The translations under genes and the position numbers were made by a program. The notes under the pieces are model-generated. The model searched no databases, was not told the DNA's origin, and saw only the letters and a program-made list of their open reading frames with translations. Source: Escherichia coli (GTDB lineage Bacteria; Pseudomonadota; Gammaproteobacteria; Enterobacterales; Enterobacteriaceae). Taken from it: a DNA stretch of 64,000 bases. Shown piece by piece: positions 1 to 27,028 of the stretch. The stretch is taken from NCBI RefSeq assembly GCF_016026235.1, contig NZ_CP065613.1, one strand, 5' to 3'. How positions within the stretch are numbered: position 1 is the stretch's first letter; every line of letters starts with the position of its first letter.

Positions 1-306
1 TAACACCTCACTCGAAAACACCAGAGTGAGTAACATAAGAATCATCGCCCCATATCGTCGTATGGGAGTCAAAATCATCAGGTCTCCTGGTCGGATTTAA
101 TCATTCCAACACCTTATATTTTTCACAAATTTGAGAGTTGAATCTCAAATCATATCAAAAATAGCTGTCAAGAGCACCCCAAGGAATAGTCCAAATCTGA
201 AACTATGTCACGTGTTAACGATTCAGATTGGCGCTAAATCGCAGAAAATGTGGGGTTTATCGCAAAATTCAGCCGTTTTTTGCGCGAGATCGCTCACCCT
301 TGCTTC

Positions 307-336
307 TCATCCTGTGGACTTACCGCTCAGGGATGA
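307..336 (+). promoter_or_regulatory. Candidate MalT boxes upstream of malS (TCATCC at 307-312, GGATGA at 331-336)
   Basis: Hexamers matching the MalT box GGA(T/G)GA lie 60-90 bp upstream of the malS start; malS is a known MalT-dependent gene. Assignment by motif only. Confidence 0.3.
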
Positions 337-397
337 GTTTTGTCTGGCTTATCGCTGGCAAACTGTCTGAAATCGCAGCAATAAGGACTCATCCGCC

Positions 398-2428
398 ATG
401 AAACTCGCCGCCTGTTTTCTGACACTCCTTCCTGGCTTCGCCGTTGCCGCCAGCTGGACTTCTCCGGGGTTCCCTGCCTTTAGTGAACAGGGAACGGGAA
501 CATTTGTCAGCCACGCGCAGTTGCCCAAAGGTACGCGTCCACTAACGCTACATTTTGACCAACAGTGCTGGCAGCCTGCGGATGCGATAAAACTCAATCA
601 GATGCTTTCCCTGCAACCCTGTAGCAACACGCCGCCTCAATGGCGATTGTTCAGGGACGGCGAATATACGCTGCAAATAGACACCCGCTCCGGCACGCCA
701 ACATTGATGATTTCCATCCAGAACGCCGCCGAACCGGTAGCAAGCCAGGTCCGTGTATGCCCGAAATGGGATGGATTACCGCTCACGCTGGATGTCAGCG
801 CCACTTTCCCGGAAGGAGCCGCCGTACGGGATTATTACAGCCAGCAAATTGCGATAGTGAAGAACGGTCAAATAACGTTACAACCCGCTGCCACCAGCAA
901 CGGTTTACTCCTGCTGGAACGGGCAGAAACTGACGCCTCTGCCCCTTTCGACTGGCATAACGCCACGGTTTACTTTGTGCTGACAGATCGTTTCGAAAAC
1001 GGCGATCCCAGTAATGACCAGAGTTACGGACGTCATAAAGACGGTATGGCGGAAATTGGCACTTTTCACGGCGGCGATTTACGCGGCCTGACCAACAAAC
1101 TGGATTACCTCCAGCAGTTGGGCGTTAATGCTTTATGGATAAGCGCCCCATTTGAGCAAATTCACGGCTGGGTCGGCGGCGGTACAAAAGGCGATTTCCC
1201 GCATTATGCCTACCACGGTTATTACACACAGGACTGGACGAATCTTGATGCCAATATGGGCAACGAAGCCGATCTACGGACGCTGGTTGATAGCGCACAT
1301 CAGCGCGGTATTCGTATTCTCTTTGATGTCGTGATGAACCACACCGGCTATGCCACGCTGGCGGATATGCAGGAGTATCAGTTTGGCGCGTTATATCTTT
1401 CTGGTGACGAAGTGAAAAAAACGCTGGGTGAACGCTGGAGCGACTGGAAACCTGCCGCCGGGCAAACCTGGCATAGCTTTAACGATTACATTAATTTCAG
1501 CGACAAAACAGGCTGGGATAAATGGTGGGGAAAAAACTGGATCAGAACGGATATCGGCGATTACGACAATCCTGGATTTGACGATCTCACTATGTCGCTG
1601 GCCTTTTTGCCGGATATCAAAACCGAATCAACTACCGCTTCTGGTCTGCCGGTGTTCTATAAAAACAAAACGGATACTCACGCTAAAGTCATCGAAGGCT
1701 TTACACCTCGCGATTACTTAACCCACTGGTTAAGTCAGTGGGTCCGCGACTATGGGATTGATGGTTTTCGGGTCGATACCGCCAAACATGTTGAGTTGCC
1801 CGCCTGGCAGCAACTGAAAACCGAAGCCAGCGCCGCGCTTCGCGAATGGAAAAAAGCTAACCCCGACAAAGCATTAGATGACAAACCTTTCTGGATGACC
1901 GGTGAAGCCTGGGGCCACGGCGTGATGCAAAGTGACTACTATCGCCACGGCTTCGATGCGATGATCAATTTCGATTATCAGGAGCAGGCGGAGAAAGCTG
2001 TCGATTGTATTGCGCAGATGGATACGACCTGGCAGCAAATGGCGGAGAAATTGCAGGGTTTCAACGTGTTGAGCTACCTCTCGTCGCATGATACCCGTCT
2101 GTTCCGTGAAGGGGGCGACAAAGCAGCAGAGTTATTACTATTAGCGCCAGGCGCGGTACAAATCTTTTATGGCGATGAATCCTCGCGTCCGTTCGGTCCT
2201 ACAGGTTCTGATCCGCTGCAAGGTACACGTTCGGATATGAACTGGCAGGATGTTAGCGGTAAATCTGCCGCCAACGTCGCGCACTGGCAGAAAATCAGCC
2301 AGTTCCGCGCCCGCCATCCCGCAATTGGCGCGGGCAAACAAACGACACTTTCGCTGAAGCAGGGCTACGGCTTTGTTCGTGAGCATGGCGACGATAAAGT
2401 GCTGGTCATCTGGGCTGGGCAACAGTGA
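398..2428 (+). CDS. malS: Periplasmic alpha-amylase MalS
   Basis: 676-aa ORF with a signal peptide (MKLAACFLTLLPGFAVAAS) and GH13 alpha-amylase motifs (DVVMNHTG, GFRVDTAKH); length matches E. coli MalS. Confidence 0.9.
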   Translation: MKLAACFLTLLPGFAVAASWTSPGFPAFSEQGTGTFVSHAQLPKGTRPLTLHFDQQCWQPADAIKLNQMLSLQPCSNTPPQWRLFRDGEYTLQIDTRSGTPTLMISIQNAAEPVASQVRVCPKWDGLPLTLDVSATFPEGAAVRDYYSQQIAIVKNGQITLQPAATSNGLLLLERAETDASAPFDWHNATVYFVLTDRFENGDPSNDQSYGRHKDGMAEIGTFHGGDLRGLTNKLDYLQQLGVNALWISAPFEQIHGWVGGGTKGDFPHYAYHGYYTQDWTNLDANMGNEADLRTLVDSAHQRGIRILFDVVMNHTGYATLADMQEYQFGALYLSGDEVKKTLGERWSDWKPAAGQTWHSFNDYINFSDKTGWDKWWGKNWIRTDIGDYDNPGFDDLTMSLAFLPDIKTESTTASGLPVFYKNKTDTHAKVIEGFTPRDYLTHWLSQWVRDYGIDGFRVDTAKHVELPAWQQLKTEASAALREWKKANPDKALDDKPFWMTGEAWGHGVMQSDYYRHGFDAMINFDYQEQAEKAVDCIAQMDTTWQQMAEKLQGFNVLSYLSSHDTRLFREGGDKAAELLLLAPGAVQIFYGDESSRPFGPTGSDPLQGTRSDMNWQDVSGKSAANVAHWQKISQFRARHPAIGAGKQTTLSLKQGYGFVREHGDDKVLVIWAGQQ

Positions 2429-2605
2429 CTTTTCCGGCTTCCCGTTCGTCAGTACCTCGGGAAGCCGCCAACCAGGATAAAATGTCAGCCCTAATCAGCG
2501 TTGCAGGATAAAGCACCGCTCACTCTTCAACAGACCGATTTGCACCCCAGCAAATGTAGCGTTATTGTTACCTTCCTTGCTACAGAGTTCGACAGATATC
2601 CCGCT

Positions 2606-3859
2606 ATGACATTCTCCCTTTTTGGTGACAAATTTACCCGCCACTCCGGCATTACGCTGCTGATGGAAGATCTGAACGACGGTTTACGCACGCCTGGCGC
2701 GATTATGCTCGGCGGCGGTAATCCGGCGCAGATCCCGGAAATGCAGGACTACTTCCAGACGCTACTGACCGACATGCTGGAAAGTGGCAAAGCGACTGAT
2801 GCACTGTGCAATTACGACGGTCCACAGGGGAAAACGGAGCTACTCACACTGCTTGCCGGAATGCTGCGCGAGAAGTTGGGTTGGGATATCGAAGCACAGA
2901 ATATTGCACTAACAAACGGCAGCCAGAGCGCGTTTTTCTACTTATTTAATCTGTTTGCCGGACGCCGTGCCGATGGTCGGGTCAAAAAAGTGCTGTTCCC
3001 GCTGGCACCGGAATACATTGGCTACGCTGACGCCGGACTGGAAGAAGATCTGTTTGTCTCTGCGCGTCCGAATATTGAACTGCTGCCGGAAGGCCAGTTT
3101 AAATACCACGTCGATTTTGAGCATCTGCATATTGGCGAAGAAACCGGGATGATTTGCGTCTCCCGGCCGACGAATCCAACAGGCAATGTGATTACTGACG
3201 AAGAGTTGCTGAAGCTTGACGCGCTGGCGAATCAACACGGCATTCCGCTGGTGATTGATAACGCTTATGGCGTCCCGTTCCCGGGTATCATCTTCAGTGA
3301 AGCGCGCCCGCTATGGAATCCGAATATCGTGCTGTGCATGAGTCTTTCCAAGCTGGGGCTGCCTGGCTCCCGCTGCGGCATTATCATCGCCAATGAAAAA
3401 ATCATCACTGCCATCACCAATATGAACGGCATTATCAGCCTGGCACCTGGCGGTATTGGTCCGGCGATGATGTGTGAAATGATTAAGCGTAACGATCTGC
3501 TGCGCCTGTCTGAAACAGTCATCAAACCGTTTTACTACCAGCGTGTTCAGGAAACTATCGCCATCATTCGCCGCTATTTACCGGAAGATCGCTGCCTAAT
3601 TCATAAACCAGAAGGAGCCATTTTCCTCTGGCTATGGTTTAAGGATTTGCCCATTACGACCGAGCAACTCTACCAGCGCCTGAAAGCACGCGGCGTGCTG
3701 ATGGTGCCGGGGCACAACTTCTTCCCGGGACTGGATAAACCGTGGCCGCATACGCATCAATGTATGCGCATGAACTACGTACCAGAGCCGGAGAAAATTG
3801 AGGCGGGGGTGAAGATTCTGGCGGAAGAGATAGAAAGAGCCTGGGCTGAAAGTCACTAA
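2606..3859 (+). CDS. avtA: Valine-pyruvate aminotransferase (alanine-valine transaminase)
   Basis: The ORF-track ORF 2501..3859 has an unsupported 5' extension; the internal ATG at 2606 gives a 417-aa product starting MTFSLFGDKF, matching the AvtA N-terminus. Class I/II aminotransferase with the SLSKLG PLP-lysine motif. Confidence 0.9.
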   Translation: MTFSLFGDKFTRHSGITLLMEDLNDGLRTPGAIMLGGGNPAQIPEMQDYFQTLLTDMLESGKATDALCNYDGPQGKTELLTLLAGMLREKLGWDIEAQNIALTNGSQSAFFYLFNLFAGRRADGRVKKVLFPLAPEYIGYADAGLEEDLFVSARPNIELLPEGQFKYHVDFEHLHIGEETGMICVSRPTNPTGNVITDEELLKLDALANQHGIPLVIDNAYGVPFPGIIFSEARPLWNPNIVLCMSLSKLGLPGSRCGIIIANEKIITAITNMNGIISLAPGGIGPAMMCEMIKRNDLLRLSETVIKPFYYQRVQETIAIIRRYLPEDRCLIHKPEGAIFLWLWFKDLPITTEQLYQRLKARGVLMVPGHNFFPGLDKPWPHTHQCMRMNYVPEPEKIEAGVKILAEEIERAWAESH

Positions 3860-4489: not shown

Positions 4490-4726
4490 TCCTTTGCACT
4501 AAAACAGCAGAGTGCCAGAGAGCGCGTCCCTACTGCTTTGATCCAACGAAGGAAATGTTAAAGTTTTGGCACTTGTCCAAAGCGTTATGTGATCGCGCCC
4601 TGGTCGTCCCTGACAGTAAACCCCAGTTCATTAGAAATAGCCTGCGCGGTTTCACGCAGAGGTTTCAGGAGATTTTTCTCTCCCACCTGTTTCAGACGTG
4701 ATGTCGAAAGCGAAATCGACACGGCA

Positions 4727-5542
4727 CTACGAATTGATATGTTCCTTGCTGTAACGCCGCTTCCACGCTGCTGGCGTTAAACCGGTGTGTTTGCGAAAAA
4801 TCTGCCGGAAATAGCCAACGTCATTAAACCCGCACAACGCCGCCACTTCCGTGAGCGATCGCGCTTCGCTAATTAACAGCTTTTCGGCTTCGCGCACCCG
4901 CTGGCGATGGATTGCTTCTGTTAACGTCAGATGAAACACCCACCGGTAGACGCGCCCAAGATAATCGGCATTGCAGTACAGCTCGCGGGCCAGAAGCGCC
5001 GTAGAAAGCGGGCGATGATATTGCGTGCGGATCAGTTTCTGCGCTTTCCAGGCAAGGGTGGTGCCTGCGCCATCGGCCTGTTCATCAAGACGCGCGTCAC
5101 GGGTGAGCTGCTGCAAAATGAGCAGCACAATAAACTCCAGCGCCGGAGTGCGTTGATGCTTTTCCTGTTCGCTTAAGAACTGGCGAAACAGGGCCACCAG
5201 CGCCTGCGGATCGACAACCTTCGTTTGTTGCGGCACGCTAAGATGAGTAAGCCAGCGAGGGTCGTTGTCCGGCGCTTTAACCTCAAAATGCAGCCAGTAA
5301 AATTTGAGATCGGCGGGAAAATCCTCCACCCCAACATGTTGTCGGTTCGGCCAGAGTAATAAACTCTCTCCCGCATCGACCAGAAATATCCGTTCTTCTT
5401 CCTGAATCGTTAATCGACCTTTTTCGACAAAGATAATTTCCCATGACTCCAGCCGCCTTGCAGGATGCCTCCCTACGCCACGGGAAATAAATAATCCACC
5501 ATTTTGCACTTTAATCGGTAACGTCATGGATAATTCGAGCAT
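4727..5542 (-). CDS. AraC/XylS-family transcriptional regulator (cupin sensor domain plus C-terminal HTH)
   Basis: 271-aa ORF with a C-terminal AraC-type HTH signature (…TEVAALCGFNDVGYFRQIFRKHTGLTPAAWKR); divergent from the adjacent transporter gene. Confidence 0.8.
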   Translation of the reverse strand: MLELSMTLPIKVQNGGLFISRGVGRHPARRLESWEIIFVEKGRLTIQEEERIFLVDAGESLLLWPNRQHVGVEDFPADLKFYWLHFEVKAPDNDPRWLTHLSVPQQTKVVDPQALVALFRQFLSEQEKHQRTPALEFIVLLILQQLTRDARLDEQADGAGTTLAWKAQKLIRTQYHRPLSTALLARELYCNADYLGRVYRWVFHLTLTEAIHRQRVREAEKLLISEARSLTEVAALCGFNDVGYFRQIFRKHTGLTPAAWKRRYSKEHINS

Positions 5543-5591
5543 TGATATGTAATTTCCCGCTTATTCATTAATGATTAAACACATTACCTTT

Positions 5592-5604
5592 TGATTATTA
5601 ATCA
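5592..5604. promoter_or_regulatory. Perfect 13-bp palindrome TGATTATTAATCA in the divergent promoter region (candidate operator)
   Basis: Seen directly in the 225-bp AT-rich spacer between the AraC-family gene and the GPH transporter gene; a second TTAATGATTAA half-palindrome lies about 25 bp upstream. Confidence 0.3.
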
Positions 5605-5767
5605 AAAATATTAATTTCACCTGATCCATTTCACACTTTTAAATTCAGGTCGGAATCGTCACCTTTTTTTACTCTTTTCTCGCCTTGTTGATATTCCCGT
5701 TCACGGCAGAATTAATCAGGTCATTTCAATAAAACTAAAAATTGCTCCCTATTCACGAGGAATATCT

Positions 5768-7168
5768 ATGACCTCTACACCGATTACTACCGCTGATATC
5801 GCTAAAGGTAAAATTGACGATGCGTTATCTGTACGGGAAAAAATAGGCTACGGCCTGGGTGACGCAGGCGGCACCGTAATAACTTGCCTGATCATGAATT
5901 TTCTCACCTTTTTCTACACCGACGTTTTTGGATTAACTCCGGCGCTGGTTGGCACGCTGTTTATTGCACTGCGCGTGTTTGATGCCATCTCCGACCCGGT
6001 GATGGGCGTCATTGCCGACCGGACGCAAAGTCGCTGGGGGCGCTTTCGCCCGTGGCAGCTATGGATTGCCATTCCCATCGGCATTATCGGCATCCTGACG
6101 TTCACCGTGCCAGATGCCAGCATGGGAGTAAAAATCGCCTGGGCGTTCGGTACTTACCTGCTCCTTTCAGTCGGTTATACCGCCATCAACGTACCGTACT
6201 GCGCGCTGATCAACACCATGACCACCCGCCACAATGAAGTGATCTCCTGCCAGTCCTGGCGATTCGTTCTCTGTGGCGTAGCGGGATTTCTGGTTTCGGT
6301 AGGCTTACCGTGGATGGTAGATCTCTTCGGTCAGGGTAATGCCGCGCGCGGCTATCAATTGGGCGTCGGCGTGCTGTGCGCCATTGCCGTGGTGATGTTC
6401 CTGTGCTGTTTTTTCTGGGTTCGTGAACGGGTGCCACTCTCCACAATGGGGAAATTTACCCTGCGCGAACATCTTGCCGAGCTGCGGAACAACGACCAAC
6501 TGCTGCTGATGCTGGTCATGTCTTTCCTGCTGATTAACGTCTTTAACATTCGCGGCGGTGGGTATATGTACTTCATTACCTACGTCTTACAAGGCAGTAC
6601 GGGCTACACGTCGCTGTTCTTCACCATGGTCACCTTCGCCTCCATTATCGGCTCGGTGATTGTCAGCCCGTTAACGCGGCGTTTCGATACCGTCAAAATT
6701 TACTACTACACCAACCTGCTCCTCGCTGCGCTGGCGGTGTTGATGTGGTTCCTGCCCTCCGGCCCGGCTTATCAAACGCTGTGGCTGGCGGTGATCCTCG
6801 GTAATGGCGTAATTCTTGGCTTCACATTGCCACTGCACTTCTCATTGATGGCCTTTGCCGATGACTACGGCGAGTGGAAAACCCGCGTACGTTCTTCCGG
6901 CATGAACTTCGCCTTCAATCTGTTTTTCATCAAGCTGGCCTGGGCCTCCAGCGCCGGGATCATCAGCCTGCTGTTTATTTTTGTCGCCTACCAGCCAGGC
7001 GTGGAAAACCAGACCACCAGTTCGCTTGGCGGGATCGCGGCGATGGAAACATTACTGCCTGCGCTATTCCACCTGCTGCTGGCAGGGGCGATCCGCTTTT
7101 GCAAACTCAATAATCCTATGATGTCACGCATAGCTACCGACCTGCGTCAGCGTCATGTACAGCCTTAA
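5768..7168 (+). CDS. Glycoside-pentoside-hexuronide (GPH/MelB-like) cation symporter
   Basis: 466-aa ORF with about 12 predicted hydrophobic helices and the GPH N-terminal signature ([12 protein letters not shown] … [25 protein letters not shown]); resembles the YicJ/MelB family. Confidence 0.8.
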
Positions 7169-7178
7169 GGAGCACAAG

Positions 7179-9158
7179 ATGAACATTTCGGAAGTCGATC
7201 TGCATAAACTGACGGTCAGCGATCCGTTCCTCGGTCAGTACCAACAACTGGTCCGCGACGTGGTGATTCCTTATCAGTGGGATGCCTTGAACGATCGTAT
7301 CCCAGAAGCGGAACCCAGCCATGCGATTGAAAACTTTCGCATTGCCGCCGGACTTCAGGAGGGTGAATTTTACGGGATGGTGTTTCAGGACAGCGACGTC
7401 GCCAAATGGCTGGAAGCGGTAGCCTGGTCGCTGTGCCAGAAGCCGGACGCCGAACTGGAAAAAACCGCCGACGAGGTAATCGAACTGATCGCCTCCGCCC
7501 AATGCGAAGACGGCTATCTCAATACTTACTTTACGGTAAAAGCACCCGAAGAACGCTGGAGCAATCTGGCGGAGTGTCATGAACTTTACTGCGCAGGTCA
7601 TCTGATTGAAGCCGGAGTCGCCTTCTTCCAGGCCACGGGAAAACGGCGCTTGCTGGGGGTCGTTTGCCGCCTGGCCGATCATATCGACAGCGTATTTGGT
7701 CCAGATGAAAGTAAGTTACACGGTTATCCTGGTCACCCGGAAATTGAACTGGCACTAATGCGCCTGTATGAAGTGACTGAAGAGCCGCGCTACCTGGCGC
7801 TGACGAACTATTTTGTCGAACAGCGTGGTGCGCAACCGCACTATTACGACCAGGAATATGAAAAGCGCGGGCAGACATCGCACTGGCACACCTACGGCCC
7901 GGCGTGGATGGTGAAAGACAAAGCCTACAGCCAGGCACATTTGCCCCTTGCGCAACAGCAAACCGCCATCGGTCACGCGGTACGTTTTGTCTATCTGATG
8001 ACCGGCGTCGCGCATCTCGCGCGTTTAAGTCACGATGACAGCAAGCGTCAGGACTGCCTGCGGCTGTGGAACAATATGGCCCAGCGTCAGTTATATATTA
8101 CCGGCGGCATTGGCTCGCAAAGCAGCGGCGAAGCGTTCACTAGCGATTACGATCTGCCGAATGACACGGTATACGCTGAAAGTTGCGCCTCCATCGGCCT
8201 GATGATGTTTGCCCGACGAATGCTGGAAATGGAAGGCGACAGTCAATATGCCGATGTGATGGAGCGCGCACTGTACAACACCGTGCTCGGCGGCATGGCG
8301 CTGGATGGCAAACATTTCTTCTATGTGAATCCGCTGGAAGTACATCCAAAATCGCTGAAATTCAACCATATCTACGATCACGTTAAACCGATCCGCCAGC
8401 GTTGGTTTGGCTGCGCTTGTTGTCCGCCAAATATCGCCCGCGTGCTGACCTCGATTGGTCATTATCTCTACACGCCGCGTGAAGATGCGTTGTATATCAA
8501 CATATACGCAGGAAACAGCATGGAAGTGCCGGTAGAAAATGGCACGCTGCGCCTGCGGGTTAGCGGGAACTATCCGTGGCAGGAGCAGGTGACGATTGCG
8601 GTTGAATCGCCCCAGCCGGTACGTCATACGCTGGCTTTACGTCTGCCGGACTGGTGCACACAGCCGCAGATCATATTGAATGGGGAAGAGGTCGAGCAGG
8701 ATATTCGTAAAGGGTATTTGCACATTACCCGCGAATGGCAGGAGGGCGATACGCTGAATCTGACTTTGCCGATGCCGGTACGCCGCGTTTACGGTAACCC
8801 GCTGGTGCGTCACGTCGCCGGAAAAGTGGCGATTCAGCGCGGCCCGCTGGTGTATTGCCTGGAACAGGCCGACAACGGCGAGTCACTGCATAATCTGTGG
8901 CTGCCCACCGATGCGCCATTTACGACATTTGAAGGCAAGGGATTGTTTAGCCATAAGATCTTAATCCAGGCACCGGGTTACCGGTATGAACAGAGCAATC
9001 CAGAGCAGCAACCGCTGTGGCATTACGACAGCGCGCCAGCCAAACGCCAGCCGCAAACTCTGACCTTTATCCCGTGGTTTAGCTGGGCTAACCGGGGCGA
9101 AGGCGAAATGCGGATCTGGGTGAATGAGGAAAAGCATCGCCATCCGGAGGTTGGATAA
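7179..9158 (+). CDS. Glycoside hydrolase family 127-like protein (DUF1680, beta-L-arabinofuranosidase family)
   Basis: A start at ATG 7179 is preceded by an AAGGAG RBS; the ORF-track start at 7155 overlaps the transporter stop. The 659-aa product contains a Cys-rich CACCPPN motif of the kind found in GH127 enzymes. Confidence 0.7.
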   Translation: MNISEVDLHKLTVSDPFLGQYQQLVRDVVIPYQWDALNDRIPEAEPSHAIENFRIAAGLQEGEFYGMVFQDSDVAKWLEAVAWSLCQKPDAELEKTADEVIELIASAQCEDGYLNTYFTVKAPEERWSNLAECHELYCAGHLIEAGVAFFQATGKRRLLGVVCRLADHIDSVFGPDESKLHGYPGHPEIELALMRLYEVTEEPRYLALTNYFVEQRGAQPHYYDQEYEKRGQTSHWHTYGPAWMVKDKAYSQAHLPLAQQQTAIGHAVRFVYLMTGVAHLARLSHDDSKRQDCLRLWNNMAQRQLYITGGIGSQSSGEAFTSDYDLPNDTVYAESCASIGLMMFARRMLEMEGDSQYADVMERALYNTVLGGMALDGKHFFYVNPLEVHPKSLKFNHIYDHVKPIRQRWFGCACCPPNIARVLTSIGHYLYTPREDALYINIYAGNSMEVPVENGTLRLRVSGNYPWQEQVTIAVESPQPVRHTLALRLPDWCTQPQIILNGEEVEQDIRKGYLHITREWQEGDTLNLTLPMPVRRVYGNPLVRHVAGKVAIQRGPLVYCLEQADNGESLHNLWLPTDAPFTTFEGKGLFSHKILIQAPGYRYEQSNPEQQPLWHYDSAPAKRQPQTLTFIPWFSWANRGEGEMRIWVNEEKHRHPEVG

Positions 9159-9262
9159 GGCGCTCGCGCCGCATCCAACGTAGGGAGCACATTGCCTGAT
9201 GCGACGCTTAATACGTCTTATCAGGCATACGAGTCGGTGCGAGAGCGTAGGCCAGCCGCACC
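9159..9262. repeat. REP-like palindromic units
   Basis: GCCTGATGCGACGCTTAATACGTCTTATCAGGCATAC and flanking GC-rich inverted repeats between the GH127-like gene and yiaT. Confidence 0.6.
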
Positions 9263-9278
9263 GACATCCACCGGTGAA

Positions 9279-10019
9279 TTAAAAACGCCAGCTCACGCCG
9301 GTGACAAAGGTAAAACTCTCATTACGATCAATCATCGGGCTGTCGGTAACCTCTTCCGGCAGCTCGCTGTATCCTGCGCTCGCCATCAATACGACGTGCT
9401 CTCCTATCGGGTATTTTGCCGTCAGGCTGACATAGGGCACCCAGGCATCCTGCGCGGAATAACTTGCCAGACCGCTACGACGGGACTCACTCTCTGAAAT
9501 GCCATAGTAATAGTCACTGAAATTCTCGTCATAATAGAGAACGCCCAGCGCAGGTGTCAGCGACAGACGACCTATCTGCATTTTGTGGAATACCGATAGC
9601 TCCCCCACCCAGCCGTTGCTGTTATCCAGAACGTCCGCAGCTGCAGAGGCTTTCACGGTTCCCCAACGCTCGTGGTGATACCAGGCAACCCCCGCCATAG
9701 CCGTACTATCACGCTTATCAAGCTGTTGCATGACATAATCGTCATTATCGGCAGGGTCAAATTCCAGCGGCATCCAGGATGCGGTCAGGCTAAGTTCATT
9801 TTTTTCACTTTGCGACAGAATAAAACCTAACGTGGTCTGACGAACATAAAAAGTATCACCTTCATAGCTAATCAGCGGAATTGCCTTTGTATTTTCATTA
9901 TAACCGCGATAAGGTGATTCATTATAAGCCGCACCGGCACCAATGGATAATTCAGGAGCAGTTGCGCTTGCCATAAAAGGCAACGCAAATAACGCCACAA
10001 TATTGCGGTTAATTAACAT
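9279..10019 (-). CDS. yiaT: MipA/OmpV-family outer-membrane protein
   Basis: 246-aa ORF with a signal peptide (MLINRNIVALFALPFMASATA) and a C-terminal aromatic residue (…GVSWRF) typical of beta-barrels; length and position match YiaT. Confidence 0.8.
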   Translation of the reverse strand: MLINRNIVALFALPFMASATAPELSIGAGAAYNESPYRGYNENTKAIPLISYEGDTFYVRQTTLGFILSQSEKNELSLTASWMPLEFDPADNDDYVMQQLDKRDSTAMAGVAWYHHERWGTVKASAAADVLDNSNGWVGELSVFHKMQIGRLSLTPALGVLYYDENFSDYYYGISESESRRSGLASYSAQDAWVPYVSLTAKYPIGEHVVLMASAGYSELPEEVTDSPMIDRNESFTFVTGVSWRF

Positions 10020-10142
10020 GTCCGGTATTCCATTTTAAAATAAGATAAAAAAGAGTCGGCATAGTAATGCTTACAATTTCTCCGGTGCAAGATTCATATT
10101 TATATAGTAATATATAAAATTATATATAATTGGGCTGTTGCG

Positions 10143-11117
10143 ATGACAAAATTACAACTTAAGTACCGGGAGTTAAAAATTATCTCGGTAATCGCTGCCA
10201 GTGAAAATATCAGCCATGCCGCGACTGTACTTGGCATCGCACAGGCCAACGTCAGCAAATACCTTGCTGATTTTGAATCAAAAGTGGGTTTAAAAGTCTT
10301 TGACCGAACCACCCGGCAGCTGATGCTCACACCTTTTGGTACCGCGCTGTTACCGTACATCAACGACATGCTGGACAGAAACGAGCAGCTTAATAATTTT
10401 ATTGCAGATTATAAGCATGAGAAACGTGGTCGGGTCACCATCTACGCCCCAACCGGCATAATTACCTATTTATCCAAACATGTAATCGATAAAATTAAAG
10501 ATATCGGTGATATCACCTTATCGCTAAAAACCTGCAATCTTGAGCGTAATGCCTTTTATGAAGGCGTCGAATTTCCTGATGATTGTGATGTTTTAATCAG
10601 CTATGCCCCACCAAAAGATGAATCGCTGGTTGCCAGTTTTATTACCCAATATGCCGTAACCGCTTATGCCAGCCAGCGCTATCTTGAGAAACATCCCATT
10701 AGCCGTCCTGACGAACTCGAACATCACTCCTGTATTTTGATCGACTCGATGATGATCGACGACGCGAATATCTGGCGCTTCAACGTCGCTGGGAGTAAAG
10801 AGGTGCGGGATTATCGCGTGAAGGGAAATTACGTTTGCGACAACACGCAATCGGCGCTGGAGCTGGCACGAAATCACCTGGGGATTGTGTTTGCGCCAGA
10901 CAAAAGTGTGCAGAGCGATCTGCAAGACGGCACGCTGGTGCCCTGCTTTCAGCACCCGTATGAATGGTGGCTGGATCTGGTGGCTATCTTCCGTAAACGG
11001 GAATACCAGCCCTGGCGGGTCCAGTATGTGCTGGATGAAATGCTGCGTGAAATTCGCCACCAGCTTGCTCAGTCGCAGCAACTGCGGCCTGAACAAGCGG
11101 CGGAAAGCGAAGATTAA
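10143..11117 (+). CDS. yiaU: LysR-family transcriptional regulator
   Basis: 324-aa ORF with an N-terminal LysR HTH; divergent from yiaT across an AT-rich spacer. Confidence 0.85.
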
Positions 11118-12250
11118 TGATCGAGATAAAGGTAATGCACCCAGCTGGTCATGCGTAATAACACTTTGCGCATCACCGAGACATGGCTGAAATGATCAGA
11201 GTAGACCGCCACCTGGGCGTAAATACCGTCTGGTAAAGCGCTCAAATCAGTGTGCTCATTCAGTTCAATGGTCGCGATAACGCCATCTGAACCCGGCGCT
11301 GTGTTTAACGTCTGTAAGGTGCCGGTCGACTGATAAGCTCCGCTGGGAACAGCTGGACTAATGGCTGCCAGCTTACCGCTGAACACTTTGCCTGGCAGAG
11401 CGTTAAATACCACTTCCGCATCATCGCCGGGAGCCAGGCGCAGCAAGGAGTTCTGACGGAACTGCGCCACGATTTGTCGTTTCTGATCGGGTATAAACAC
11501 CATCACCGGACGTAGCGGCAGCGACGCGGCATAGGTACCCGGACGAATCAGCACCTGGGTCACATAACCATCGCTCGGCGCACGCACTATCGTCTGCTCA
11601 AGGTTATATTTTGCTTCCGCGAGCTGCGCTTTCAGGCTGGCGATTTGAGAATGTTCACCCAGCACCAGGCTATCCAGCTGGCTCTGGATCTGTTTTTGTT
11701 CCGCCGCTGATGACTTCACGGAGGCTTCCTGCGCCAGATAATTTTGCCGCGCCACATCGATATCGCGTTCTGAAAACGGGTTTACTTTCGCCTGGCTGCC
11801 GCGTGCGTAACGCTGATACTCTTTAGCGAATTTATCCCGCGTGGCCTTTGCCTGCTGAGTATTCGCCGCCATCTCATCTAACTCTGCGCCCAACGCCCGC
11901 TGTTTATGTTCTGCGGTAACGATATCCGCCATCAGCCGATCCACCCGCGCCTGATAACGCGTCGGGTCCAGTCGAAATAGCACTTCACCTTTTTTAATCA
12001 GCGTATTTTTCTTATCCGTCACTTCAATCACCACACCAGTCACCTGTGGGACAACAGGAATAGAAATAACCGCTTTTTGCGCTTTAAAGGTATACGGATG
12101 GTTATAGTTCATTAACAGAATTAGACCGCTGACAATAAATATTCCACCCAGGGCCGCTGTGGGAATGGTCCATTTATTTACGGGAATTTTGAAGATCTTA
12201 AACATTGCCCATGCAAAAGCCACATAGGTCAAAATAATCAGTAAATCCAT
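11114..12250 (-). CDS. yiaV: HlyD-family membrane-fusion-like inner-membrane protein
   Basis: 378-aa ORF with one N-terminal transmembrane helix and a long coiled-coil region; paralog of the ORF at 20176..21312. Confidence 0.8.
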
Positions 12251-13122: not shown

Positions 13123-14661
13123 TCAGAACAGCCCCAACGGTTTATCCGAGTAGCTCACCAGCAGACACTTGGTTTGCTGATAATGCTCCAGCATCATCTT
13201 ATGGGTTTCGCGTCCGATGCCCGACTGTTTGTAGCCGCCAAACGCCGCATGTGCCGGGTAAGCGTGATAACAGTTGGTCCACACGCGCCCAGCCTGAATG
13301 CCGCGCCCCATCTTATAGGCCAGATTACCGTTGCGGCTCCAGACGCCCGCGCCCAAGCCATATTGCGTATCGTTCGCCAGCTCCAGAGCTTCTTCCATCG
13401 TTTTGAAGGTGGTTACCGCCAGCACCGGGCCAAAAATCTCCTCCTGGAACACGCGCATATTGTTCTGACCAAACAGAATCGTCGGTTCGAGGTAGTAGCC
13501 GTCTTTCAGTTCACCTTCCAGCAGCTTGCGCCGCCCGCCGGTGAGCACGTCTGCGCCCTCTTTTTTACCGATATCAATGTAGTTGAGGATGGTTTCCAGT
13601 TGCCCGTGAGAAACCTGCGCGCCCATTTGCGTCACGCTGTCGAGTGGGTTACCGCTGCGAATGCTTTCGACACGGCGGATGGCGCGTTCCATAAAGCGTT
13701 CGTAGATTGACTCCTGCACTAAGGCACGACTCGGACAGGTGCAAACTTCACCCTGGTTAAAGGCAAACAGTGCAAAGCCTTCCAGCGCTTTATCGAAAAA
13801 GGCATCTTCTTCATCCATCACATCAGCAAAGAAGATATTTGGCGATTTGCCGCCCAGCTCCAGCGTCACCGGAATAATGTTTTGCGTTGCGTATTGCATA
13901 ATTTGTTGGCCCACTTCCGTTGAGCCGGTAAACGCCACTTTGGCGATGCGTTTCGAGGTCGCCAGATATTCGCCAATTTCCCCACCAGCGCCATTGACCA
14001 CGTTCACCACGCCCGGCGGCAGTAAATCACCGACGATTTCCATTAGCAGCAGTACAGAAAGCGGGGTAAGACGTGCGGGTTTCAGCACCACACAGTTGCC
14101 CGCCGCCAGCGCGGGAGCCATTTTCCAGCTCGCCATCAGCAGCGGGAAGTTCCACGGGATAATCTGCCCCACCACGCCTAACGGTTCATGGAAATGATAG
14201 GCCACGGTTTCGCTATCAACTTCACTGATCCCACCTTCCTGCGCCCGAATACACGAGGCGAAATAGCGGAAATGGTCAATCGCCAGCGGTACATCCGCAG
14301 CACTGGTTTCGCGAATGGGTTTGCCGTTATCCCAGGTTTCAGCTGTCGCTAACAGCTCGAGGTTTTGTTCCATTCGATCGGCAATCTTAAACAGAATCGC
14401 CGCGCGATCCTGCACCGAGGTGTGCGCCCATTTATCTTTCACTTTGTGCGCAGCATCCAGCGCCAGATCGATGTCTCGTTTGCCCGAAGACGCCACTTCG
14501 CACAGCAGCTGCCCGGTCACCGGCGTCAGGTTCTGGTAATACTCACCATCGGCAGGGACTACCCATTCGCCACCAATAAAGTTGTCGTAGCGGGCTTTTA
14601 ACTTGAGGGGGAAACCATACTCGCCGGGCTTAATCTGTGCTGAAGGGGGATTATTGGTCAT
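13123..14661 (-). CDS. aldB: Aldehyde dehydrogenase B
   Basis: The 558-aa ORF-track ORF was trimmed to the Met giving [19 protein letters not shown]… (512 aa), matching AldB; ALDH catalytic Cys region present. Confidence 0.9.
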
Positions 14662-14825: not shown

Positions 14826-15977
14826 TTACATTGCGGCGCGATAAATCGCCACAATTTCTTCGTGAGTTGCCTGGGTCGGGTTAGTAAAGCCACAGGCATC
14901 TTTCAGGGCATTAGTCGCCAGAACCGCGAAATCTTCTTCTTTCACGTTCAGGTCACGCAGGCCTGCCGGGATATTCACTTTCTTCGCCAGTTCACGGATG
15001 GCATTGATGCACGCTTCTGCGCCTTCCGCGTCATTTTTGCCTGTCACGTTAACGCCCATGGCAGCAGCGCAGTCACGCAGACGCGCAGCAGCGACTTTGC
15101 TGTTGAACACCTGAACGTGCGGCAGCAGAACAGCATTACATACACCGTGTGGCAGGTTGTAGAAACCTCCCAGCTGGTGTGCCATCGCATGAACATAACC
15201 AAGAGATGCGTTGTTGAACGCCATACCAGCGAGGAACTGGGCATAAGCCATTGCTTCACGCGCTTTAGCATTGCTGCCATCTTCAACGGCTAATGGCAGG
15301 TTTTCGGCAATCATGGTCACCGCTTTCAGTGCGCAAGCGTCAGTGATCGGCGTTGCAGCGATAGAAACATACGCTTCGATAGCGTGTGTTAAGGCGTCCA
15401 TACCAGTGGCGGCGGTCAGTGACTTCGGCATACCGATCATCAGAGATGAGTCATTGACAGAAAGCAGCGGAGTCACGTGCTTATCAACAATCGCCATTTT
15501 GATGTGACGCGCTTCGTCGGTGATGATGCAGAAACGAGTCATTTCTGATGCTGTACCCGCAGTGGTATTGATGGCGATCATCGGCAGCTGCGGTTTTGCA
15601 GAGCGGTCAACGCCTTCATAATCACGGATATCACCACCATTGGCTGCCACCAGCGCAATACCTTTTGCACAGTCATGCGGAGAACCACCGCCTAAGGAAA
15701 TCACGCTATCGCAATTATTTTCTTTAAGTAATTTCAAACCTGCGGCGACGTTTTCCGTGGTTGGGTTAGGTTGGGTGCCATCATAAATAACGCTAAAAAT
15801 ATTGCGTTCTTCCAGTGCTTTTTGCACATCACCCGCCATACCTAATTTCGTTAACATATTGTCAGTGACAATTAATGTACGGGTAAATCCATAATCTGCC
15901 ATCATATTCATTGCATCAATCAATGAACCAGCGCCGATGACATTCACAGAAGGAATAAAGAACGTTGAAGCTGCCAT
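14826..15977 (-). CDS. yiaY: Iron-containing (group III) alcohol dehydrogenase
   Basis: 383-aa ORF of the Fe-ADH family (GGGSPHD motif); position matches yiaY. Confidence 0.88.
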
Positions 15978-16075
15978 AACACACTCCTGAAAGTGTAAAA
16001 AAGGGTGGGCAGCTTACTGAGGATTTTCATTCGAAAATATGATCATTATTATTGATTATCAAAATTAATCTAATA

Positions 16076-16113
16076 AAAAGCACATTGTATTCATTAAACA
16101 ATGTGCTTTTTTT
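16076..16113. terminator. Bidirectional rho-independent terminator downstream of selB
   Basis: Hairpin CACATTGT-(loop)-ACAATGTG flanked by an A-run on one side and a T-run on the other, inside an AT-rich spacer. Confidence 0.6.
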
Positions 16114-16166
16114 AAAATCATAAGAAATTTGTATTAATTTATTTTAAAAATTAATTAATCATTTCC

Positions 16167-18011
16167 TTATTTTTCCGGAAATAATAATGCGTCGCGCAAT
16201 AAATGATCATTTCCGCGACGCCGCGTAAAGCCAATGCGGTCAAAATATTCCAGGATTTGAATCGCCAGTTTTCGCCCAACCCCTAAGCGATCGCGGAAAT
16301 CCGCCGCGCAGGTTGAACCACATTCCTGATCGAGATCGCGGATCATATTGGCAAACTCGACAATCCGATCGTTACGGTAATAACGATCTTTGACGATCGC
16401 GGTAATTATCCCCTGTTGGGCCGCCTGGCGTAGCGTCAGGCGCATTGCCTGCTCGTCGGTTCCCGTCTCTTTTGCCAGGTCACGCACCCACCACGGTTCG
16501 TCACCAAACAGCGGCTCTGCTTTTTGCCAGATGGCCTGCTGCTCTTCGCTGAAGCCCGCTTTGTGATCCGGCAGATGCAGCCAACCGTGATGACTGAGGA
16601 TGTCGCCGCTTTCGCGCATCTTTTCAATCAGCAACAGTACCAGCGCTTCATCTTCCATTGGCAACGCCATACGTCGCAGACGTTCGCGCCCAGGACCAGG
16701 TTCATCACGATGTTGCTCATGATAAGTCGCTAATGTGTCGAGAATTTTCCGCTGCCAGCGGGCGGCAACCGGCGCATTCAACAAGCTATAACCAGCCTGA
16801 ATATAGCCAGGCTGTTGCAGCAGTTCGCGCATCCCTTCGCCGTTGAGCTGGCGCGCCCAGGCGAAATCCGCAAGGTTAACCGCTCCGCGTTCCAGATGAA
16901 CAGATAACGCATCGGCATCGCTCTGCGCCCGTGCAAGAGACGCCAGCCATTGCAGATATTCCGGCTTACGTTTACCGCGACGCGGCGGGTTAAGCATCAC
17001 CACACGCGCCCCCGCCAGCGTATTGCGGGCCGAGATATCGCGCAACACTAAGCGATCGTTATCCGCCAGCCACAGCGGCGTGTCGAACACCAGCTCGGCA
17101 AGGTTATCTTCCAGCAACGAAACGCGTCCCGTAACGTGGCTGGCGGCGTGGTGAATATGCAGCGGCTGCCACTGGGTCAGCGGCGTATGGGTTTGAAGCT
17201 CGACAATAACCCGCGTGAACGGCTCTGGCGGCACATCGGCAAGCAGCCAGTCGCCACGGTTAATCTGCTCTTTTTCCGCATCCCCCGCGATGTTAAGCGC
17301 GATACGCTGGCCGGCATGAGCGGTTTCTGTTGGCTGGTTTTGTGCATGCAGCGCACGTACACGCATCGGTTTATTTACACCAGTCAGCCATAGTGAATCG
17401 CCTACCTTCACTTCCCCGCTTAACGCCGTACCGGTGACCACCAGCCCGGCACCTTTTACGGTAAATGCGCGGTCGATCGCGAGGCGGAAACTATGTTGGC
17501 TGGCGTGTTCACGTTCTGGTAACTGAAGTAGATGCTCGCGCAGGGCATCAATTCCCCGACCTTCGGTTGCTGCGGTGATAAACAGTTTTGCCTCAGCAAA
17601 ACCGTATTCCCGCAGAACCTCCTTTACCTGGCGTTCAACCTCATCAACACGCGCTTCGTCCACGCGATCAGCTTTGGTCAGCGCCACTGTCAGCATCGGG
17701 TTACCGGTCAGCTGCAAAATCGCCAGATGCTCACGGGTCTGTGCCATCACGCCGTCATCGCACGCCACCACCAACAGCGCGTGATCGATACCACCAACGC
17801 CCGCCAGCATGTTGGAAAGAAACTTTTCATGACCGGGTACGTCGATAAAACCAGGCACGCGACCATCCGGCTGCGGCCAGTAGGCATAGCCGAGATCGAT
17901 GGTCATGCCGCGCTTTTTTTCTTCCGGCAGACGGTCAGCATTTACGCCAGTAATCGCCTGCAATAAGGTTGTTTTGCCGTGGTCAACGTGTCCGGCAGTC
18001 GCAATAATCAT
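16167..18011 (-). CDS. selB: Selenocysteine-specific translation elongation factor SelB
   Basis: 614-aa ORF with an N-terminal GTPase G1 motif ([10 protein letters not shown]); overlaps the selA stop, indicating an operon. Confidence 0.92.
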
Positions 18012-20105: not shown

Positions 20106-20175
20106 GCCGAGTCCTTTGTGCGAGGAAAAATATCAGTATGGCTCAGGCTCACGCAAAACACAGGTGATATAAGTC

Positions 20176-21677: not shown

Positions 21678-21893
21678 ATTTGCCTCGGATTCACGTTTAT
21701 CAGTGTTGTTTTTTGGCTGGCAGCCAGAAGGGAGTCAGGCTGATATTTTGACAATAATCCGGGTTCGCGATTCTCGCCATAACACCAAAGAATAATTTTT
21801 AGAGGTGATGAGTTGCTTAGTTACATAACGATTGTATGACGAAGGCATAACATGCTGTAGATCACATCAGGTGAACGCCGTAAGAAAATATCT

Positions 21894-22070
21894 TGTGATT
21901 CAGATCACAAAGATTCAACAAACCATCAAAACAAAAATGTGACATTAGTCACATTTAAATGCCATTTTTAGCGAAAATCGCCGCCTTGTGGCTTTTTTAC
22001 ACAAGCGTTTTGTGATGAACATCACGCCAATTACCTCTCTACCCCCTATATTTATGTGATTGATATCACA
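21894..22070 (+). promoter_or_regulatory. mtlA promoter region with four consensus-like CRP sites (21894-21909, 21938-21953, 22011-22026, 22055-22070)
   Basis: TGTGA-N6-TCACA read directly: TGTGATTCAGATCACA, TGTGACATTAGTCACA, TGTGATGAACATCACG, TGTGATTGATATCACA. The mtl promoter is known to carry multiple CRP sites. Confidence 0.7.
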
Positions 22071-22213
22071 CAAAAGGCCGTCGACTGGACAGTTAACCGA
22101 TTCAGTGCCAGATTTCGCAGTATCTACAAGGTCCGGCTACCTCTGCCGCCACATTAACAAAAAACCTCGGGCTTCCAGCCTGCGCGACAGCAAACATAAG
22201 AAGGGGTGTTTTT

Positions 22214-24121
22214 ATGTCATCCGATATTAAGATCAAAGTGCAAAGCTTTGGTCGTTTCCTCAGCAACATGGTGATGCCAAATATCGGCGCGTTTATCGCG
22301 TGGGGTATCATCACCGCGTTATTTATTCCAACAGGGTGGTTACCGAACGAGACGCTGGCGAAGCTGGTCGGGCCGATGATCACTTATCTCCTGCCGCTGC
22401 TGATCGGTTATACCGGTGGTAAGCTGGTAGGCGGCGAACGTGGCGGCGTAGTCGGTGCCATCACCACCATGGGCGTTATCGTCGGCGCAGACATGCCGAT
22501 GTTCCTCGGTTCTATGATTGCAGGTCCGCTGGGCGGCTGGTGCATTAAGCACTTCGACCGCTGGGTAGACGGTAAGATCAAATCCGGTTTTGAGATGCTG
22601 GTGAACAACTTCTCCGCAGGCATCATCGGGATGATCCTCGCCATTCTGGCATTTCTCGGCATTGGCCCGATTGTTGAAGCCCTGTCCAAAATGCTGGCTG
22701 CGGGCGTTAACTTCATGGTTGTCCATGACATGCTGCCGCTGGCGTCTATCTTTGTTGAACCGGCGAAAATCCTGTTCCTCAACAACGCCATTAACCACGG
22801 TATCTTCTCGCCGCTGGGTATTCAGCAGTCCCATGAACTGGGTAAATCCATATTCTTCCTGATTGAAGCTAACCCAGGTCCGGGTATGGGGGTGCTGCTG
22901 GCGTACATGTTCTTTGGTCGTGGTAGCGCTAAACAGTCTGCGGGCGGTGCGGCAATTATCCACTTCCTGGGTGGTATCCACGAAATTTACTTCCCGTATG
23001 TGTTGATGAATCCGCGTCTGATCCTGGCCGTTATCCTCGGCGGTATGACTGGCGTGTTCACGCTGACTATCCTGGGCGGTGGTCTGGTTTCTCCGGCATC
23101 TCCGGGTTCTATCCTTGCTGTACTGGCGATGACACCAAAAGGTGCTTATTTCGCTAACATCGCGGGTGTGTGTGCGGCGATGGCTGTCTCCTTTGTTGTC
23201 TCTGCTATTTTGCTGAAAACCAGCAAAGTGAAAGAAGAAGATGATATTGAAGCAGCAACTCGTCGTATGCAGGACATGAAAGCTGAGTCTAAAGGTGCAT
23301 CTCCGCTGTCTGCGGGCGATGTGACTAACGACCTGAGCCACGTACGTAAAATCATCGTTGCCTGTGACGCCGGTATGGGTTCAAGTGCGATGGGCGCAGG
23401 CGTGCTGCGTAAGAAAATTCAGGATGCAGGTCTGTCGCAGATTTCTGTTACTAACAGCGCGATCAACAACCTGCCGCCAGATGTGGACCTCGTCATCACT
23501 CACCGTGACCTGACCGAACGCGCTATGCGCCAGGTTCCGCAGGCACAGCATATTTCGCTGACCAACTTCCTCGACAGCGGCCTGTACACCAGCCTGACCG
23601 AACGTCTGGTTGCTGCCCAGCGCCATACTGAAAACGAAGTGAAAGTGAAAGTGAAAGACAGCTTTGACGATTCCAGTGCTAACCTGTTCAAACTGGGCGC
23701 GGAGAACATCTTCCTCGGTCGCAAAGCTGCCACCAAAGAAGAAGCGATTCGTTTTGCTGGCGAGCAGTTGGTGAAAGGCGGTTACGTTGAGCCGGAATAC
23801 GTTCAGGCGATGCTGGATCGTGAAAAACTGACCCCGACTTATCTGGGTGAGTCTATCGCGGTGCCACACGGTACGGTTGAAGCGAAAGATCGCGTACTGA
23901 AAACGGGCGTGGTGTTCTGCCAGTACCCGGAAGGCGTGCGCTTCGGTGAAGAAGAAGATGACATTGCCCGTCTGGTGATTGGTATTGCTGCCCGTAACAA
24001 CGAGCACATTCAGGTTATCACCAGCCTGACCAATGCACTGGATGATGAGTCCGTCATCGAGCGTCTGGCACACACCACCAGCGTGGATGAAGTGCTGGAA
24101 CTGCTGGCAGCTCGTAAGTAA
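22214..24121 (+). CDS. mtlA: PTS mannitol-specific EIICBA component
   Basis: 635-aa ORF starting [27 protein letters not shown]…, matching the MtlA N-terminus. Confidence 0.93.
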
Positions 24122-24149
24122 TCCAATCCCACCCTCTCCACATGGAGAA

Positions 24150-24265
<116 letters not shown>

Positions 24266-24350
24266 CCCCTCTCCTCACGGAGAGGGTTTGGGTGAGGGAA
24301 AAGCCTCACCCCAGCCCTCTCGGGTAAAAACATTGATGAAGGTTAATACT

Positions 24351-26954: not shown

Positions 26955-27018
26955 GCCCCTCAGACGATTGGTACGATCGTATCAACCCGCATCTGGCTTG
27001 CGTTAGCTGGTCAATGCG

Positions 27019-27028
27019 GGGACTCCCC
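27019..27028. repeat. Target-site duplication, left copy (GGGACTCCCC)
   Basis: Directly repeated at 28323..28332, immediately outside the IS terminal inverted repeats; a 9-bp TSD is expected for IS10-group elements, and the exact boundary is ambiguous by 1 bp. Confidence 0.7.

Follow-up and report, generated by a model that had tools for sequence, protein, structure and literature searches.

A module of three genes at positions 4727-9158 of a 64,000-nucleotide stretch of the Escherichia coli genome (contig NZ_CP065613.1; "the window" hereafter means this whole stretch) encodes an AraC-family regulator, a symporter of the GPH (glycoside-pentoside-hexuronide:cation) family and a glycoside hydrolase of family GH127. 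It is a conventional but uncharacterised transporter-glycosidase-regulator unit, and judging from its sequence we think it fairly probable that it is a self-contained catabolic module, controlled by CRP and an activator, through which small beta-L-arabinofuranosides are imported and hydrolysed in the cytoplasm to supply the catabolism of L-arabinose. In the proposed course of events, the symporter would import a small glycoside, and the zinc- and cysteine-containing GH127 enzyme would, most likely, remove the non-reducing beta-L-arabinofuranosyl residue in the cytoplasm. Candidates for the substrate are Araf-beta1,2-Ara (Araf, arabinofuranose) and comparable pieces of arabinan or of the hydroxyproline-rich glycoproteins of plants. 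The freed L-arabinose would then enter the araBAD pathway, the established route of L-arabinose use. The divergently encoded AraC-family protein would activate the operon from a conserved block upstream of a weak promoter, and a shared CRP-like site may add catabolite control. We infer the substrate, which is the weakest link of the proposed function, as well as the inducer, the assignment of promoters and operators and the direction of coupling.

Besides the proposed function, our data also allow insights into the history of the locus. The module is old at the sgbE/ysaA-yiaT position in Enterobacteriaceae, and E. coli lineages differ by independent deletions: K-12-type strains have lost the module and kept the ysaC/ysaD fragments, the lineage of the window has lost yiaJ-sgbE, and Nissle-type strains the module together with yiaTUVW.

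The GH127 enzyme

The assignment of the 659-aa protein to DUF1680/GH127, made in an earlier note from the sequence alone, is supported by Pfam profile searches, which put the protein inside the family with PF07944 (1e-111, residues 12-427), PF20736 (1e-23, residues 438-532) and PF20737 (3e-25, residues 534-649). This is the three-domain architecture of CAZy GH127, in which a catalytic (alpha/alpha)6 domain is combined with a GH127 middle and a C-terminal domain. The CACCPPN motif pointed out in the same note occupies residues 412-418. The best solved relative is 4QJY, a GH127 protein of Geobacillus (782 bits, E 5e-234, aligned residues 11-650), and HypBA1 comes second with 511 bits (4e-152); both are deposited as beta-L-arabinofuranosidases. 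GH127 structures deposited under other names and GH146 score below these two, with 385 bits for 6EX6, 316 for 5MQO (aceric-acid-type) and 64 for GH146. This ranking is in line with the former suggestion that the enzyme resembles beta-L-arabinofuranosidases.

In the alignment to HypBA1 (3WKW), residues E318, E334, C336, C414 and C415 correspond to E322, E338, C340, C417 and C418, which are the acid/base (E322), the nucleophile (C417) and the zinc ligands (E338, C340, C417 and C418) of that enzyme. By this alignment the catalytic apparatus of CAZy GH127, consisting of an acid/base Glu, a nucleophile Cys and a Glu-Cys-Cys zinc site, is retained, and the residues aligned with H142, H194, H270 and Y386 of HypBA1 are conserved too. 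The only NCBIfam match of the protein is the aceric acid hydrolase model NF049879, which covers residues 252-649 only and reaches 455 bits against a cut-off of 950, so that the protein, as scored, falls outside this equivalog. As neither a signal peptide nor a hydrophobic segment was found (maximal 19-residue hydropathy of 1.21), the enzyme is soluble and cytoplasmic. Taken together, the 659-aa protein is probably a cytoplasmic beta-L-arabinofuranosidase (EC 3.2.1.185). The database names for the module proteins are all generic.

Two further observations concern this protein. Its C-terminal tail (window 9132-9158) is variable in E. coli: the 659-aa form of the window ends with RHPEVG, strain 2017-02-2CC has a 656-aa form ending with EKHCHP, and forms of 654, 651 and 628 aa occur in the protein collection; some genome matches also end at window position 9132, near the 3' end of the gene. 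In addition, the GH127 protein cluster at 90% identity also contains 466-aa MFS transporter sequences, which suggests a bridging fused gene call and thus a database artefact rather than biology.

The GPH transporter

The 466-aa protein passes the curated cut-off of TIGR00792, the model of the GPH:cation symporter family TC 2.A.2 (332 bits versus 231, model positions 1-437 of 437) and matches Pfam MFS_2 with 2e-73, which agrees with its initial description as a GPH-family sugar:cation symporter. The hydropathy profile contains 11-13 hydrophobic segments, corresponding to about 12 transmembrane segments, and the protein aligns over its whole length with the MelB structure 4M64 (4e-37). In this alignment R69, D72 and D76 take the place of MelB R52, D55 and D59, S75 stands where MelB has N58, and neither D19 nor D124, which contact the sugar in MelB, is retained. 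The features of the GPH family, about 12 helices and the cation-site carboxylates of helix II equivalent to D55 and D59, are thus recognisable in the sequence. All specific NCBIfam models are missed, with scores of 355 versus a cut-off of 610 for YagG, 325 versus 836 for the YicJ-type model PRK11462, 207 versus 456 for MelB and 191 versus 528 for UidB. By these scores the transporter belongs to a GPH subfamily separate from all four.

The AraC-family regulator and the control region

The third protein combines the Pfam domains AraC_binding (1e-9, residues 26-132) and HTH_18 (2e-18, residues 184-263), as expected from its earlier assignment to the AraC family; at sequence level it has both the C-terminal double helix-turn-helix and the N-terminal cupin ligand domain of AraC/XylS proteins. 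Its best NCBIfam match is AraC itself (NF007860), at 59 bits versus an equivalog cut-off of 208; it is therefore not AraC proper, and it is probably a pathway-specific activator.

The control region between the divergent genes (5543-5767, 40% GC) was analysed by a phylogenetic footprint of 68 aligned orthologous intergenic regions from many genera. The most conserved non-coding block, AGGTCGGAATCGTCACC-TTTTTTTACT, shows a column conservation of at least 95% over most of its length, and its conservation and location directly upstream of the predicted -35 element suggest that this is probably where the AraC-family activator binds. Two further footprints, CCTTGTTG at 5683-5690 and GCAGAAT at 5706-5712, contain the putative hexamers of the operon promoter, which are conserved across genera, whereas the spacer between them is not. 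A GAGG before the ATG is conserved as well.

Upstream of the block lies a CRP-like 22-mer that agrees with the consensus at 14 of 22 positions and at 8 of the 10 core positions, a score reached by only 19 of the approximately 64,000 positions of the window. It overlaps a footprint of the form GATC-N4-TCACA-(N)-TTT at 5622-5638, in which GATC and TCACA are each at least 95% conserved. The site lies at about -91 from the predicted start of the operon transcript and at about -41 from that of the regulator. Elsewhere in the window, at 21848-22073, four strong CRP-consensus matches (up to 17/22) lie within about 200 bp; collinearity with strain 88-3493 identifies this stretch as the promoter region of mtlA.

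Two candidate operators were rejected. The palindrome TTTTGATTA-T-TAATCAAAA (5589-5607) was considered as a dimeric operator; only its left half, TGATTATT, is conserved across genera, and this half fits the -10 element of the regulator better. A 14-nt repeat, TCACCTTTTT(T/C)TAC, occurs at 5659 and again at 5904 and was considered as a distal AraC-type operator. The second copy is a coding coincidence, since it varies across genera at synonymous positions of conserved LTFFY codons.

Weighing the substrate

An alternative that we regard as unlikely accepts import and cleavage of a glycoside and differs in what is cleaved: instead of beta-L-arabinofuranose, the sugar removed would be another furanoside or a rare sugar of plants or algae, or the substrate would be an aryl or alkyl glycoside. 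GH127 is indeed polyspecific, the family members in the PDB under other names are recognisably related to the enzyme, its one NCBIfam match is the aceric acid hydrolase model, and neither the transporter nor the regulator matches an equivalog model. However, the score for the aceric acid model is less than half of the cut-off, and the beta-L-arabinofuranosidase structures are much closer over the full length than those of other names. Furthermore, all checked residues of HypBA1 that are said to contact arabinofuranose (from a list reportedly given by Ito and colleagues in 2014) are conserved.

Beta-L-arabinofuranosides therefore remain the substrates that we favour, and several points weigh against this choice or against the proposed function as a whole. 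GH127 also includes aceric-acid hydrolases and 3,6-anhydro-D-galactosidases with the same Cys/Zn motif, and because other activities share it, the motif alone leaves the specificity unfixed. The label of 4QJY as a beta-L-arabinofuranosidase rests on the name of the deposited entry. No cargo can be deduced from the family models, as the sequence of the symporter scores under every NCBIfam equivalog cut-off. We know of no extracellular enzyme of E. coli that releases beta-L-arabino-oligosaccharides, and none is encoded near the module; the supply of substrate is therefore assumed to come from plants or other organisms. The predicted operon promoter was not called by the consensus promoter scan, as is expected for a weak, activator-dependent promoter. 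Finally, the literature searched contains no biochemical or genetic data on the E. coli enzyme or any enterobacterial orthologue; it yielded a pangenome association (PMC11879602) and counts of carbohydrate-active enzymes, with no assigned substrate.

Distribution and constraint

When one genome of each species was scanned, at least 265 relatives were found, and the best 80 of these were kept as species loci. In 67 of these 80 loci, nearly all from Enterobacteriaceae, the three genes follow in the same order and orientation, AraC(-), GPH(+), GH127(+), so that the divergent arrangement of regulator and operon is kept. The genera represented among these 67 include Escherichia, Citrobacter, Klebsiella, Raoultella, Enterobacter, Kluyvera, Leclercia, Lelliottia, Kosakonia, Phytobacter, Pantoea and Buttiauxella, together with Salmonella diarizonae. 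The trio adjoins sgbE in 25 loci and ysaA in 18, and in 23 loci yiaT-yiaU comes after it. Since other genera carry the module at the same position, it is old resident DNA rather than an incoming island.

Comparison of the window with other E. coli, E. whittamii, Citrobacter and Klebsiella gave ratios of nonsynonymous to synonymous substitution rates (dN/dS) of 0.03-0.15 for the three genes, with 0.05-0.15 for the regulator and 0.03-0.09 for the GH127 gene. All three are intact and under purifying selection, and therefore do not represent a chance pattern of open reading frames (ORFs).

The gap between the GPH and GH127 genes measures 10-55 nt in the 67 loci. An enterobacterial gut isolate carries a second GPH-GH127 pair of about 70% identity between ubiX and purF (7219-11956 of that locus), here with a LacI-family regulator. 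The occurrence of such a paralogous pair under another type of regulator indicates that transporter and enzyme form a conserved functional unit and that the regulator is exchangeable. Outside the Enterobacteriaceae, Bradyrhizobium GH127 proteins are 70-72% identical to the E. coli enzyme, and thus closer to it than the Geobacillus protein, and have no GPH or AraC neighbour; in one such locus its neighbours encode an S9 peptidase-like protein and a PAS histidine kinase, which is uninformative on function. A transfer of GH127 between distant phyla is possible in the case of these copies.

Allelic states in E. coli

To classify the locus within the species, a 5.2-kb query across the module, junction-spanning queries and annotated examples were used on 5426 complete E. 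coli genomes. The module query found at least a partial match in 5425 of them and was covered to at least 80% in 2311. Four states emerged. State A, with the tandem arrangement ysaA-yiaJ-yiaKLMNO-lyxK-sgbHUE-AraC-GPH-GH127-yiaT, is exemplified by EC6622 and occurs in about 1890 genomes. In state B, found in K-12 and J53 and in 2462 genomes altogether, the module is deleted and yiaJ-sgbE kept. State C is the reverse, with yiaJ-sgbE deleted and the module kept, and comprises 426 genomes of the type of the window and strain 88-3493; its examples among the matches listed are O157:H7. In state D (481 genomes, for example Nissle) sgbE abuts aldB, and both the module and yiaTUVW are gone. The junction of sgbE with the 3' end of the AraC-family gene is present in 4355 genomes, which is the sum of states A and B, and the K-12 scar junction in 2462, so that either route, 4355-2462 or 2311-426, leads to about 1890 genomes for state A; about 170 genomes are unclassified.

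Both deleted clusters have left traces. In K-12, 116 bp from the 3' end of the AraC-family gene and 190 bp from the interior of the GH127 gene are still present, and the annotation of MG1655 lists them as the pseudogenes ysaC (b4648) and ysaD (b4649); according to local BLAST, K-12 lacks window positions 4831-8851 and 9042-9251, that is, two deletions. The presence of these fragments means that K-12 once had the module and then deleted it. The window in turn has a yiaJ stub next to the module (Table 1). Alignment with EC6622 locates the deletion breakpoint at 4725/4726, where the yiaJ sequence switches to the spacer between sgbE and the AraC-family gene, within a short microhomology (ATCGaCaCGGC versus ATCGcCcCGGC); half of the sgbE terminator hairpin was also lost. 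From the stub it follows that the lineage of the window formerly carried yiaJ-sgbE as well and lost it in a separate deletion. The two clusters are not alternatives but neighbours, each of which was lost on its own. The ysaD fragment, at 14118-14306 of the K-12 locus and corresponding to window 8852-9041, is 89.5% identical to the window, the flanking remnants 95-99%; this reflects either drift since an old deletion or an origin in a divergent allele.

The earlier note had correctly placed yiaJ(plaR)-yiaKLMNO-lyxK-sgbHUE after ysaA in K-12, as the K-12 annotation confirms, and had concluded that the module is a strain-variable replacement at a conserved junction. This conclusion does not hold. 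A strain-specific island that replaced yiaJ-sgbE, perhaps by horizontal transfer, is what a pairwise comparison of K-12 and O157:H7 resembles, given that in the window and the 426 genomes with the same junction the module directly follows ysaA, where K-12 has yiaJ-sgbE. However, the tandem arrangement of both clusters in state A and the two reciprocal remnants already refute this reading, to which we give next to no credence. The module is neither exclusive with yiaJ-sgbE nor compositionally distinct, its GC content of 0.53-0.57 being the same as that of the flanks, and it is syntenic in many genera; annotation and a repeat search revealed no integrase or insertion sequence (IS) element, no tRNA and no flanking repeats at the module. 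The ysaA-yiaT interval is thus explained by reciprocal deletions in adjoining ancestral clusters and not by a swap. The possibility, raised at the same time, that the locus is present in K-12 with a known substrate proved half right: remnants are there, and no substrate has been assigned in the literature searched.

The frequency of deletion could also be taken to mean that what E. coli carries is a cryptic or decaying remnant, without present function and heading for loss as in K-12. More than half of the complete genomes have deleted the module, by at least two routes, and its promoter is weak by consensus. We nevertheless consider decay improbable, as all sequences examined have the three genes at full length, the low dN/dS values apply within E. 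coli as well as between genera, and the regulatory motifs are conserved; the leftover GH127 fragment of K-12, by contrast, has diverged to the identity given above. Very improbable in our view is a coupling in which the module feeds the adjacent yiaK-sgbE pathway (L-xylulose/2,3-diketo-L-gulonate) with the sugar released from the glycoside. Such a coupling would suit the position directly after sgbE in 25 of the 67 trio loci and in the genomes of state A, but the lineage of the window and 18 other species loci keep an intact and constrained module without yiaK-sgbE. Moreover, the module has its own regulator and promoter, with the regulator gene convergent to sgbE, and the paralogous GPH-GH127 pair is located elsewhere.

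Some variation around the locus was also seen. In Nissle-type strains the yiaK-sgbE cluster contains an additional DUF4862 gene, and a Fic-family gene lies next to aldB; the stretches concerned are 15506-16426 and 22987-25975 of the Nissle locus. The Fic gene is also found in strain 88-3493 and is missing from the window. Beyond about 14.7 kb (14774; also at 20142-20175) the window is not collinear with 88-3493, its best locus match: besides the Fic gene it lacks about 9.5 kb of Rhs-element DNA, and about 2 kb of the window at 26960-28930 have no counterpart there.

Gene calls and further features of the locus

The coordinates of the three ORFs given in the earlier note agree with the ORF list and the translations, and its layout of a divergent regulator and a two-gene operon, flanked by ysaA upstream and yiaT downstream, was found again, the flanks in the annotation of the near-identical strain 88-3493. 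Its two figures for the boundary between the operon genes, a spacing of 10 nt and an overlap of 14 bp, are both right and refer to different starts of the GH127 gene (7179 and 7155, respectively). The start at 7179 is that of the RefSeq annotation of 88-3493 (99.6% identical); it has an AAGGAG Shine-Dalgarno sequence at 7167-7172, which overlaps the TAA stop of the transporter gene at 7166-7168, and the resulting N-terminus MNISEVDL is kept in other genera, in line with this start. The antisense ORFs at 7134-7682, 7531-7938 and 8091-8627 on the minus strand were taken as shadow ORFs of GC-rich coding sequence. An Rfam scan of the leader and spacers gave no riboswitch or other known RNA apart from a single naRNA4 match after the GH127 gene. 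This element sits in the convergent spacer before yiaT, within the second, 210-bp stretch deleted in K-12.

Table 1. Features of the module and its surroundings (window positions)
Feature	Position	Strand	Remarks
yiaJ/plaR (IclR-family regulator) 3' remnant	4585-4725	-	141 bp; RefSeq pseudogene in 88-3493, N-terminus missing
AraC-family transcription regulator gene	4727-5542	-	271 aa; ORF list
Predicted regulator -10, AATAAT	5594-5599	-	Within conserved block TGATTATT (5592-5599); putative, from footprint
CRP-like site cTGATCcattTCACAc	5617-5638		Predicted from consensus match and footprint
Most conserved non-coding block AGGTCGGAATCGTCACC-TTTTTTTACT	5647-5680 (footprint core 5647-5672)	+	Directly upstream of predicted -35
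Predicted operon promoter	-35 TTGTTG 5685-5690; -10 CAGAAT 5707-5712	+	16-nt spacer; putative, from footprint
GPH-family symporter gene	5768-7168	+	466 aa; ORF list
GH127 glycoside hydrolase gene	7179-9158 (ORF-track start 7155)	+	659 aa from 7179
REP-type element, Rfam naRNA4 (RF02564)	9149-9227	+	63.3 bits, gathering 59.5; overlaps GH127 stop

Implications

It is quite possible, although we would not yet call it probable, that about 43% of sequenced E. coli (including the genomes with the junction of the window) and most of the other Enterobacteriaceae genera sampled are able to take up and use oligosaccharides with beta-L-arabinofuranosyl residues, which on the same tentative reading would be released from plant extensins or arabinans by plants or by other microbes such as bifidobacteria or xanthomonads. 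If true, cross-feeding and life on plants or in the gut would involve a trait that is invisible in K-12, the strain in which the carbohydrate metabolism of E. coli was mostly mapped and which has only the ysaC/ysaD scars. Should the module work as proposed, a large part of natural E. coli, among them strains with the junction of the window such as O157:H7, and most of the other enterobacterial genera sampled would be able to gain L-arabinose from beta-linked arabinofuranosides. This would contradict the published statement, made in a study on plant arabinose and O157:H7 Sakai that does not mention GH127, that E. coli "cannot access L-Araf directly" (PMC8489885). The trait might also lie behind the co-segregation of a GH127 gene with invasiveness among inflammatory bowel disease (IBD) isolates reported by Kim et al. 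2024, who assumed a HypBA1-like activity by citation (PMC11879602). In a more novel variant of this reading, the enterobacterial clade would represent a new GH127 specificity. The matter bears on survival on edible plants, on cross-feeding with fibre-degrading gut bacteria and on the association signals of pangenome studies. In addition, our data correct a tempting misreading, as the apparent "island swap" between K-12 and O157:H7 goes back to two deletions that hit neighbouring ancestral clusters independently of each other. The classes of enzyme and transporter and the logic of regulation are already known, and the gain would lie in a new physiological capability and substrate assignment, not in a new mechanism.

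Comparison with known systems

In Bifidobacterium longum, HypBA2 acts outside the cell and frees Araf-beta1,2-Araf from hydroxyproline-linked arabinans; this beta-Ara2 enters through a dedicated transporter and is split into two L-arabinose by the intracellular HypBA1 (PMC7263609). The E. coli module shares with this system a GH127 enzyme that is located inside the cell and agrees with HypBA1 in the catalytic Glu, the nucleophile Cys and the Glu-Cys-Cys zinc ligands, an adjoining gene for a dedicated importer and an import-then-cleave logic. It differs in that the importer is a single-gene GPH cation symporter and not an ABC transporter, that no extracellular GH121 or GH43 partners are found near the module, and that the regulator is of the AraC type; besides, the similarity of the enzyme to HypBA1 (511 bits) is well under that to 4QJY (782 bits). 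With the latter, the Geobacillus stearothermophilus GH127 protein (4QJY/4QK0, Ara127N), it aligns over the full length in the same three-domain architecture. The Geobacillus gene stands at the end of a large gene cluster for L-arabinan utilisation that relies on ABC transporters, whereas the E. coli gene belongs to a minimal module of three genes.

Within E. coli, the pairing of a GPH symporter with a cytoplasmic glycosidase for a small glycoside is familiar from melAB, uidAB, yicJI and yagGH, and MelB, UidB, YicJ and YagG are the best NCBIfam relatives of the transporter described here. In contrast to these pairs, the partner enzyme belongs to GH127 and not to GH4, GH2, GH31 or GH43, and the transporter stays under each equivalog cut-off and does not retain D19 and D124 of MelB. 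Concerning its control, the module differs from araC-araBAD by a regulator that is distant from AraC (59 versus 208 bits) and by sites that are predicted, and no O2-like distal site was found. It nevertheless resembles araC-araBAD in the divergent AraC-family regulator, the conserved block abutting the -35 element and the CRP-like site, which precedes the predicted operon start by about 90 bp, and the position of the conserved block mirrors that of the I1-I2 sites of AraC at araBAD.

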